Origin: Planctomycetota bacterium
Lineage (GTDB): Bacteria; Planctomycetota; PLA2; JAEUHO01
Assembly: GCA_030066775.1 (NCBI GenBank)
Contig: JASJAY010000011.1
Span: 13,047-77,046 of the forward strand
Reading direction: 5' to 3'
DNA: 64,000 bases
A program made the position numbers and the translations under genes. The notes under the pieces were generated by a model that made no database searches, was not told where the DNA came from, and was given only the letters and a program-made list of their open reading frames with translations. Positions 25,377 to 25,843 of the stretch are shown in pieces (position 1 is the stretch's first letter; the number at the start of each line of letters is the position of its first letter).

Positions 25377-25500
25377 ATTGGTCGCTGGGGGCGTGAGGGG
25401 GTTGGGGGGAGCGTGAGGGGTGCAGGGGGGGTACGCAATAGCCCCCCTGCCACGCAGGCGCGAAGCGCCGGAGTGCACAGTCCGCCCGGGTAGGGCGGAA
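25377..25500 (-). repeat. inter-tRNA spacer module: 14-nt duplicate of tRNA-Phe 3' end, two GCGTGAGGGG boxes + G-runs, and hairpin TCCGCCC-GGGTA-GGGCGGA
   Basis: attggtcgctgggg at 25377-25390 equals 25532-25545; gcgtgagggg at 25391-25400 and 25411-25420; hairpin 25481-25499. Confidence 0.6.
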
Positions 25501-25533
25501 CACCATCACGCGGGCCCTGCTACGCCCAGCAAT

Positions 25534-25610
25534 TGGTCGCTGGGGTGGGAATCGAACCCACGACCTCCCGGGCTTCAACCGGGCGCTCTACCTACCGAGC
25601 TACCGCAGCG
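25534..25610 (-). tRNA. tRNA-Phe(GAA)
   Basis: D-arm GCTC GGTAGGTA GAGC, anticodon arm CCCGG TTGAAGC CCGGG, T-arm GTGGG-TTCGATT-CCCAC, A73 CCA; acceptor 5' strand shows one mismatch/offset. Confidence 0.65.
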
Positions 25611-25620
25611 AGAAGGTGAG

Positions 25621-25719
25621 TTGGTGGAGTCGGCGGAGCGTGAGGGGCTTGGGGGGGTAGGCACTAGCCCACCAATGGAGCAGCGGAGCTGCGACACAGC
25701 GTCCGCGCGGGAGCGCGGA
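25621..25719 (-). repeat. second copy of spacer module: 16-nt duplicate of tRNA-Ala 3' end + AGCGTGAGGGG box + covarying hairpin TCCGCGC-GGGA-GCGCGGA
   Basis: ttggtggagtcggcgg at 25621-25636 equals 25771-25786; G-box 25637-25660 about 80 % identical to 25410-25446; hairpin 25702-25719 with compensatory C/G swaps vs copy 1. Confidence 0.6.
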
Positions 25720-25771
25720 ACACACGCATGCCGACGCTGCCCCACCACGTTGGACGGTGGGGCAGGGAACT

Positions 25772-25843
25772 TGGTGGAGTCGGCGGGAAACGAACCCGCA
25801 CCGTGCTGCTTGCAAGGCAGACGGACACCCTGTGAGCGACCCC
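25772..25843 (-). tRNA. tRNA-Ala(TGC)-like, 72 nt with CCA; shortened D-arm
   Basis: Acceptor GGGGTCG/CGACTCC (E. coli Ala-like), anticodon loop CTTGCAA, T-arm GCGGG-TTCGTTT-CCCGC; only 14 nt between acceptor and position 26. Confidence 0.5.

Follow-up and report, generated by a model that had tools for sequence, protein, structure and literature searches.

Bacterial tRNA genes are known landing sites for large islands carried by integrases, and the islands and prophages moved by tyrosine integrases leave a direct repeat of part of the tRNA and its flank, so that one end of the insert bears the intact gene and the other a fragment. A second group of described systems is made up of small repeats, such as MITEs (miniature transposable elements with inverted repeats), repetitive extragenic palindromes and bacterial interspersed mosaic elements (REP/BIME), Rickettsia palindromic elements, and Correia elements, which are short, non-coding, contain hairpins, occur in several genomes of a lineage, and have no mobility gene of their own. 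Likenesses to both groups are seen in a non-coding module of 84–92 nucleotides (nt) that lies within a tRNA gene array in a Planctomycetota metagenome-assembled genome (MAG). The array is in a 64,000 nt stretch of ~70% GC (contig JASJAY010000011.1, positions 13,047 to 77,046, assembly GCA_030066775.1), which is referred to here as the window. We read the module as a mobile element, small and non-autonomous, whose targets are tRNA genes and which leaves them intact by duplicating the target segment, a reading to which we would assign a probability of about 0.6. To judge from the sequences compared, the element matches no known family and has so far been found only in the Planctomycetota.

On the minus strand of the array the spacers between tRNA genes are mostly 2–16 nt, the exceptions being the Phe–Arg (25368–25533) and Ala–Phe (25611–25771) spacers, each of which contains one full copy of the module (Table 1). 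These two spacers align to each other at 74%. The insert of module 1 is flanked by two 100% identical copies of the 14 nt repeat ATTGGTCGCTGGGG, and that of module 2 by two 100% identical copies of the 16 nt repeat TTGGTGGAGTCGGCGG; in both cases the tRNA 3'-end copy includes the encoded CCA and 1–2 nt further. The sequence GCGTGAGGGG, which makes up most of a box at one end of the module, occurs three times in the window (at 25391, 25411, and 25638), all within these two spacers, against 0.59 occurrences expected by chance. That two homologous modules of ~90 nt each abut an exact 3'-end copy of their own neighbouring tRNA cannot be chance. The reverse complement of the box, CCCTCACGCT, is present at 27113–27122, between the CCA of tRNA-Leu(CAG) and the +1 of tRNA-His, and is kept in the two closest relatives, L009 and L010. 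This solo box is either an extremely truncated element or else the source of the box end of the element.

The first-pass annotation of the window had listed these repeats, boxes, and hairpins, together with the reverse-complement box after the plus-strand CAG-tRNA, and all are present where it placed them; the blocks of G-run and TAGCCC that it had noted in both spacers do align, and the hairpins at 25481–25499 and 25702–25719 do differ by a compensatory C-G/G-C swap. Its description of one module per spacer is correct for module 2 and incomplete for the first spacer, which holds one and a fifth modules, with a 19 nt truncated box and G-run ahead of the full copy.

On the G-rich strand, the module is composed of the invariant box (A)GCGTGAGGGG, fixed at 11 nt, followed by hairpin C, hairpin B, hairpin A, and AAC. 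Hairpin C has a run of seven G and an invariant loop region, TA[C/G]GCA[A/C]TAG, while its outer pairs covary (GCAG/CTGC, TTGG/CCAA, GTCG/TGAC, and GCCG/CGGC). Hairpin B has a stem of 3–5 bp and a triloop, the sequence of which varies in nearly every one of the seven full copies found here and in other genomes, with pairing kept in all seven. Hairpin A, CCG[C/T]GC-GGGA-GC[G/A]CGG, shows exchanges of C-G to U-A and of G-C to C-G. Across the seven copies 95.5% of the cells in this structure are paired, with compensatory changes in five pairs (10 cells); the covariation score was matched by none of 500 shuffles and slid controls pair at 38–52%. The conservation of structure, which had been proposed earlier from the single swap, is thus borne out. 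Folded as RNA in the tRNA sense, the window modules are much more stable than their shuffled versions (z −3.9 and −5.9). The hairpins can form on either strand, one wobble position favouring the G-rich strand and another the C-rich strand.

Other structures were tried and rejected. A long-range stem between the box and sequence past hairpin A is not conserved among the copies, and the acceptor-like closing stem seen in single-sequence folds, which would make the module and tRNA fragment a tRNA-like or pseudo-tRNA structure, is not general. Complementarity between the spacer and the fragment beats shuffles for module 2 only (7/1000) and not for module 1, L017, or L018, and similarity of the spacers to the 5' part of the cognate tRNA is not significant. 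Known RNA families, including transfer-messenger RNA (tmRNA), ribozymes, and tRNA-like elements, were rejected for lack of a covariance-model match; a cmscan of 24000–28000 against Rfam 15 at E ≤ 10 gave no family, with only a spurious 15.8-bit match over the modules. A tmRNA on an IMG/VR contig (L047, 762–1147, minus strand) has a helix 5 identical to the C-rich strand of hairpin A over 19 nt (TTCCGCGCTCCCGCGCGGA); the helix lies there at the end of the tag reading frame (..DAFRAPARIAA*). Past these 19 nt there is no collinear alignment, so that a tmRNA origin of the module is rejected, and the identity is probably a coincidence of GC hairpins.

A scan of one genome per GTDB species with the exact pattern AGCGTGAGGGG-N3-4-GGGGGGGTA matched three further Planctomycetota MAGs (L012, L013, and L014) and three Acidithiobacillus genomes, and a longer exact pattern matched two contigs among the JGI metagenomes (L017 and L018). 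This brings the full copies to seven, two in the window and five elsewhere. A covariance model built from these seven Planctomycetota-type copies, R1, scores them at 86–102 bits and everything else below 25, and finds no third copy in the window, including with filters off around the array. The Acidithiobacillus sites were rejected as family members, at 18–22 bits and sharing only the box and G-run that the pattern demanded. These three species (L011 4750–4785, L015 4118–4150, and L016 6350–6385) have a motif of their own in common, TAGCGTGAGGGGC-N-G8-10-TAAACCCC, which in two of the three lies 0.4–1.7 kb from a tRNA-Arg or tmRNA gene.

Two decayed candidates were also seen, one an older module directly upstream of the copy in L012, and the other beside tRNA-Lys in L006 with hairpin A intact. 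In the latter (7953–8136), a perfect-looking inverted repeat of 29 nt (7953–7981 and 8023–8051) is followed by the decayed module-like stretch with its hairpin A, GTCCGCGCGTAAGCGCGGAAC, ~30 nt from the 3' end of tRNA-Lys(CTT). Four pattern scans of IMG/VR viral contigs found no true module copy, blastn of the module alone against plasmids gave no match, and in a wider blastn search of phage and plasmid sequences nothing but the array's tRNA genes was matched, on which grounds a phage or plasmid origin was rejected. A search for copies through spurious open reading frames (ORFs), as a concatenated six-frame query, had no match in protein databases; an exhaustive HMMER search returned mainly translations of tRNA genes, and the four matches inspected have no module. 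Literature searches found no description of such an element.

The core of module 1 shares 76–78% identity with those of L014, L017, and L018 and no more than 64% with that of module 2, which is closest to L012 (76%) and then L013 (71%). Because they fall in different subfamilies, the two window copies are independent insertions and not local duplicates of each other; on these identities, the family has two subfamilies. L009, where the 169 amino acid (aa) protein encoded within the tRNA cluster is 89% identical, has module 2 at the corresponding site, and the visible part of the module there is identical at 35/35 nt. The 10 nt Ala–Gly spacer in L009 is changed at 6/10 positions, and hairpin D, beyond the module core, is changed at ~7 positions and still pairs through compensating changes. 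The absence of other copies and of conservation, which the first-pass annotation had said would count against it, is therefore not what is seen: there are five further full copies, and module 2 is kept in this 89%-identity relative.

All seven copies are in or beside tRNA or tRNA-like sequence. The targets are Phe and Ala in the window, Arg-CCT in L012, Tyr in L017, and T-arm, acceptor, and CCA ends in L013, L014, and L018. In five of the seven, the box end directly touches a truncated copy of the target tRNA, whose sequence is found again across the insert within the intact gene. The target stretch, from the insertion point in the T arm or anticodon arm to a point past the end of the gene, thus flanks the insert on either side, so that one tRNA gene survives insertion complete, with the truncated copy abutting the element. 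The junctions are at tRNA positions 41/42, 51/52, 61/62, 62/63, and 64/65, and the repeats take in up to 47 nt of non-tRNA flank downstream or 45 nt upstream, so that they must have been copied from local DNA or primary transcripts and not from mature tRNA.

The two ends of the element are not alike. The position of the box end varies by no more than 1 nt, the preceding A being present at six junctions and absent at two, while the hairpin-A end is ragged, with 0–49 unique nt before the second repeat in the five copies that have a box-abutting repeat. These ragged-end spacers have no match elsewhere in the sequences compared, and the flanks next to hairpin A share no common motif. The ends, AGCGTGAGGGG... 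and ...GCGCGGAAC, are not complementary and there are no terminal inverted repeats. The whole insert is 100–170 nt in every case. Orientation relative to the adjacent tRNA is mixed, the C-rich strand being co-oriented in four copies and the G-rich strand in three, and the copies lie variously within an operon, upstream of a promoter (L012), or downstream (L014). The box end is what remains in two truncated copies (25391–25409 and 27112–27122), and the decayed copies of L006 and L012 keep hairpin A. The earlier suggestion of a small repeat element that targets tRNA 3' ends is supported by the copies at tRNAs in other genomes, but "3' ends" is too narrow for an element that lies in the anticodon stem in L012, and has several junctions and both orientations.

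Two of the target regions have features of their own. In L012, three tandem T-arm-to-CCA ends of tRNA-Arg(CCT), each with a trailer of ~25 nt, follow right after the intact gene (2225–2370), the one that has the module on its upstream side. In L018, the target is tRNA-like, with a T arm and a GCCA end, and is not recognised by ARAGORN or Rfam; its 74 nt repeats (1453–1526 and 1629–1702) differ mainly by the inverted loop (CTT vs AAG) of an 11 bp hairpin.

Table 1. Coordinates of the modules and tRNA genes in the window, followed by the target duplications of the copies with a box-abutting repeat.
Feature	Position	Strand	Details
Module 1 first direct repeat	25377–25390	−	14 nt copy of tRNA-Phe 3' end (CCCCAGCGACCAAT, tRNA sense), contiguous with box
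Truncated extra box end	25391–25409	+	19 nt, GCGTGAGGGG + GTTGGGGGG; similar to module-2 subfamily
Module 1 core	25410–25501	+ (G-rich strand)	Box AGCGTGAGGGG 25410–25420, hairpin C 25422–25450, hairpin B 25457–25469, hairpin A 25481–25499, AAC; 95.7 bits
Module 1 ragged-end spacer	25502–25531	+	30 nt, unique sequence from hairpin A to second repeat
Intact tRNA-Phe(GAA)	25534–25610	−	3' end 25532–25545, including 2 nt past CCA, forms module 1's second direct repeat
Module 2 first direct repeat	25621–25636	−	16 nt copy of tRNA-Ala 3' end (CCGCCGACTCCACCAA, tRNA sense), joined to A + box
Module 2 core	25637–25721	+	Box 25637–25647, hairpin C 25649–25675, hairpin B 25680–25692, hairpin A 25702–25719, AAC; 86.9 bits
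Module 2 ragged-end spacer	25722–25770	+	49 nt, with 10 bp hairpin D (25737–25765)
Probable tRNA-Ala(UGC)	25772–25843	−	G3:U70 pair; 3' end 25771–25786 is second direct repeat of module 2
Solo box	27112–27122	+	C-rich strand, A-CCCTCACGCT; fills gap from CCA of tRNA-Leu(CAG) to +1 of tRNA-His
Minus-strand tRNAs	24881–26015	−	Thr, Lys, Asn, Glu, Met, Arg, Phe, Gly, Trp, and sub-threshold Ala (ARAGORN, Rfam)
Plus-strand tRNAs	26898–27279	+	Pro, Leu(CAG), His, Gln (ARAGORN, Rfam)
Module 1 duplication			Repeat 14/14; 30 extra nt before second repeat
Module 2 duplication			Repeat 16/16; 49 extra nt before second repeat
L017 duplication (tRNA-Tyr)			Repeat ~28 nt; 14 extra nt before second repeat
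L018 duplication			Repeat 70/74 nt; 13 extra nt before second repeat
L012 duplication (tRNA-Arg-CCT)			Repeat ~85 nt, upstream region and 5' half to position 41; 0 extra nt

That the module is found in several genomes, at different tRNA species, each time with repeats of its own target, with a conserved structure and with no mobility gene nearby, is best explained if it is mobile. Pfam searches of the regions flanking each copy, and of the long window ORFs tested, found no integrase, transposase, or reverse transcriptase. Several points weigh against mobility. No autonomous partner or enzyme turned up, and only seven full copies are known, the collection scans having required exact patterns, with a number per genome that seems low (one match per genome, and two in 64 kb). 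The copy in L014 breaks the geometry, the module being inverted between 15/16 repeats of a tRNA 3' end and its box lying 63 nt from the first of them; L013 has only a weak repeat (14/19); and L012 can also be read as a tandem duplication, given the decayed older module upstream. The target duplications are presumed to have arisen on insertion. A synteny search for empty sites found that relatives at ≤77% identity lack the whole array, and that the nearest homologue of the gene neighbouring the L014 copy is 58% identical. To our knowledge, duplications of 14–85 nt match no bacterial transposition chemistry. The G·U evidence on which strand would act as RNA points both ways, and any argument on the polarity of insertion depends on two truncated copies.

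The asymmetry of the ends would suggest synthesis starting at the box. The exact box end, the ragged opposite end, the repeats of 14–85 nt, the 19 nt restart in the first spacer, and the solo box would all be in keeping with an element copied, from the box end towards hairpin A, onto a strand break in the tRNA gene, a mechanism that can be put forward only tentatively from this anatomy. Target-primed synthesis or template jumping by a polymerase would serve as a model for such copying, the second strand being opened at a variable distance to give the 14–85 nt duplications, and the enzyme would act in trans. An element with no promoter would be sure of being transcribed if it resided in tRNA units, which are themselves highly transcribed.

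Of the alternatives, the one that survives best is that islands or prophages driven by integrases into tRNA genes left the modules behind as remnants or miniature derivatives, with the repeats as the cores of the attachment (att) sites attL and attR. The module would then be a conserved arm by attR, left after deletion of the island or mobilised in trans as a cis-mobilisable element. Such events classically leave foreign DNA between repeats of a tRNA 3' end, one of which belongs to the intact gene; repeats of 14–85 nt, running from the T or anticodon arm to past the end of the gene, fit known att identity blocks, and the tandem tRNA-Arg 3' ends in L012 are as seen at integration hot spots. Indeed, the att-site duplications proposed by the first-pass annotation describe the flanking repeats well. 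However, no integrase is present in or near any of the seven copies, the insert is small in every case and has only one sharply defined end, and the same module is at five or more tRNA species with junctions at five tRNA positions, where one integrase family normally uses one tRNA sublocation. The viral-contig patterns, as noted, gave no module copy, and we know of no att arms with covarying hairpins and invariant loops. An origin from integrase-driven islands is on balance rather unlikely.

A more specific form of the mobile-element reading would be a bacterial retroelement resembling the short interspersed elements (SINEs) of eukaryotes, that is, target-primed retrotransposition of a non-coding element. 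The RNA would be transcribed in tRNA units, with its 3' end set at the box, for example by RNase P cleavage ahead of a tRNA downstream, as at the Leu–box–His junction, and a DNA end within a tRNA gene, either nicked or nascent, would prime its reverse transcription. The 19 nt restart in module 1 would come from an occasional template jump, and the 14–85 nt duplications from a variable second-strand break. This more specific reading is considered unlikely.

Both window copies are spacers inside the minus-strand polycistronic tRNA operon, in which arrangement they are predicted to be co-transcribed with the tRNAs; a scan of the array for σ70 promoters and terminators was uninformative. This location, with the folding of both copies beyond that of shuffles and the covariation of the hairpins, is what would be expected were the module a functional RNA of tRNA units, such as a processing or termination signal, a stable spacer small RNA, or a decoy of tRNA 3' ends, that has been spread along with tRNA genes by recombination and not by transposition. 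The full conservation of module 2 in L009 while the neutral spacer diverged, and the fact that in three genomes the box lies precisely on the side of tRNA-His where RNase P acts, would also fit. The position varies among the copies, though, and the orientation relative to tRNA transcription is not fixed (four against three), which likewise disfavours the processing signals of the pre-tRNA that had been raised in the first-pass annotation; the closing stem of the window folds is not general, with significance for module 2 only, and the target duplications are left unexplained. A functional RNA is, for these reasons, quite improbable as the explanation. Finally, it is very improbable that the modules are immobile old spacers in which the G-run hairpin stalls replication, local template switching making duplications with one end at the box: the many G-runs on the G-rich strand, the internal restart at the box in module 1, and the resemblance of L012 to a tandem duplication [module – leader – tRNA 1–41] with its new junction exactly at the box are in its favour, but the second module predicted to the left of the tRNA fragment is missing in the window copies, L017, and L018, and neither the homologous modules at different tRNAs in different genomes nor the different subfamilies in the window are explained.

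The array in which the window copies lie has 14 tRNA genes by ARAGORN and Rfam, of which 10 are minus-strand and four plus-strand genes. The gene at 25772–25843 scores 28.1 bits against an Rfam gathering score of 29 and is not called by ARAGORN, and is probably a tRNA-Ala, though atypical. The 14 tRNAs are atypical as a set: tRNA-Leu(CAG) is 77 nt and without a long variable arm, tRNA-His has U at −1 and hence no encoded G−1, tRNA-Met is 70 nt with the tRNA-Sec model as its best match, and tRNA-His, like tRNA-Ala, scores under the gathering score. Exact 10 nt matches to halves of hairpin A at 26993–27002, in the Pro–Leu spacer, and at 27317–27326, just past tRNA-Gln, may be remnants of more decayed modules or merely GC-rich hairpins. 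A solitary 79 nt tRNA-Ala(AGC) call at 45197–45275, remote from the array, has its anticodon oddly placed (31).

The window also has ordinary chromosomal genes, which encode an extracytoplasmic function (ECF) sigma factor, HEAT and VWA proteins, an Old Yellow Enzyme-type oxidoreductase, a sigma-54 activator, and SelA. The 169 aa protein is 100% identical to a protein from a Planctomycetota MAG; exact look-ups of the window proteins returned nothing. The array flanks this conserved gene only in the closest relatives (≥86% identity) and is absent beside the orthologous gene at ≤77% protein identity. As it is confined to the closest relatives, the array itself looks to have been recently acquired.

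If the mobile-element reading is true, a protein-less element of ~100 nt that keeps its structure, hits many tRNA species, and always leaves a functional gene would represent a different route to a harbour that is safe and much transcribed. The asymmetry of its ends and the length and variability of its duplications would point to an insertion chemistry that is undocumented for small bacterial repeats. Such an element would explain the unusually long spacers and tRNA 3'-end fragments in tRNA loci of the Planctomycetota, and can mislead predictors of att sites and genomic islands. The compact covariance model R1 can be used to seek the full family and the presumed enzyme partner.

Compared with the tyrosine-integrase islands, whose repeats and tRNA targets it shares, the module is without an integrase, is contained in an insert of 100–170 nt, has many tRNA species and junctions, and has one sharp end. 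The 3'-part repeats of 14, 16, 28, and 74 nt would fit remnants of integrase att sites, while L012, where the 5' half and upstream region are repeated, differs. Unlike the MITE-type repeats, it has no terminal inverted repeats, is strictly associated with tRNA, has been seen at low copy number, and has long variable duplications, where theirs are of 2–9 bp or none. REP/BIME are imperfect palindromes of 20–40 nt that are extragenic and of high copy number, in contrast to a module with three hairpins in 84–92 nt and two copies in 64 kb. Casposons and other Cas1-type systems also insert at tRNA 3' ends, and three module copies have duplications of a similar ~14–16 bp; the module has neither terminal inverted repeats nor a casposase, and the duplications of its other copies, at 28–85 nt, differ from the fixed 14–15 bp of casposons. 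With the palindrome-associated transposable elements (PATEs) derived from IS200/IS605 and the attC sites of integrons it shares covarying structure over sequence and a fixed end ~14 nt beyond a hairpin, but it has no conserved target tetra- or pentanucleotide and no R''/R' ends, and it has duplications where those systems have none. Eukaryotic SINEs and the target-primed reverse transcription of elements without long terminal repeats are like it in that one end is exact and joined to the target while the opposite one is ragged, in the variable length of the duplications, and in a dependence on host transcription units. On the retention of the exact end by truncated copies, the module gives a mixed picture, with the box end kept in two and hairpin A kept in the decayed copies of L006 and L012. 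The likeness is a resemblance only; the module is bacterial and has no A-rich tail, internal promoter, or identified reverse-transcriptase partner.

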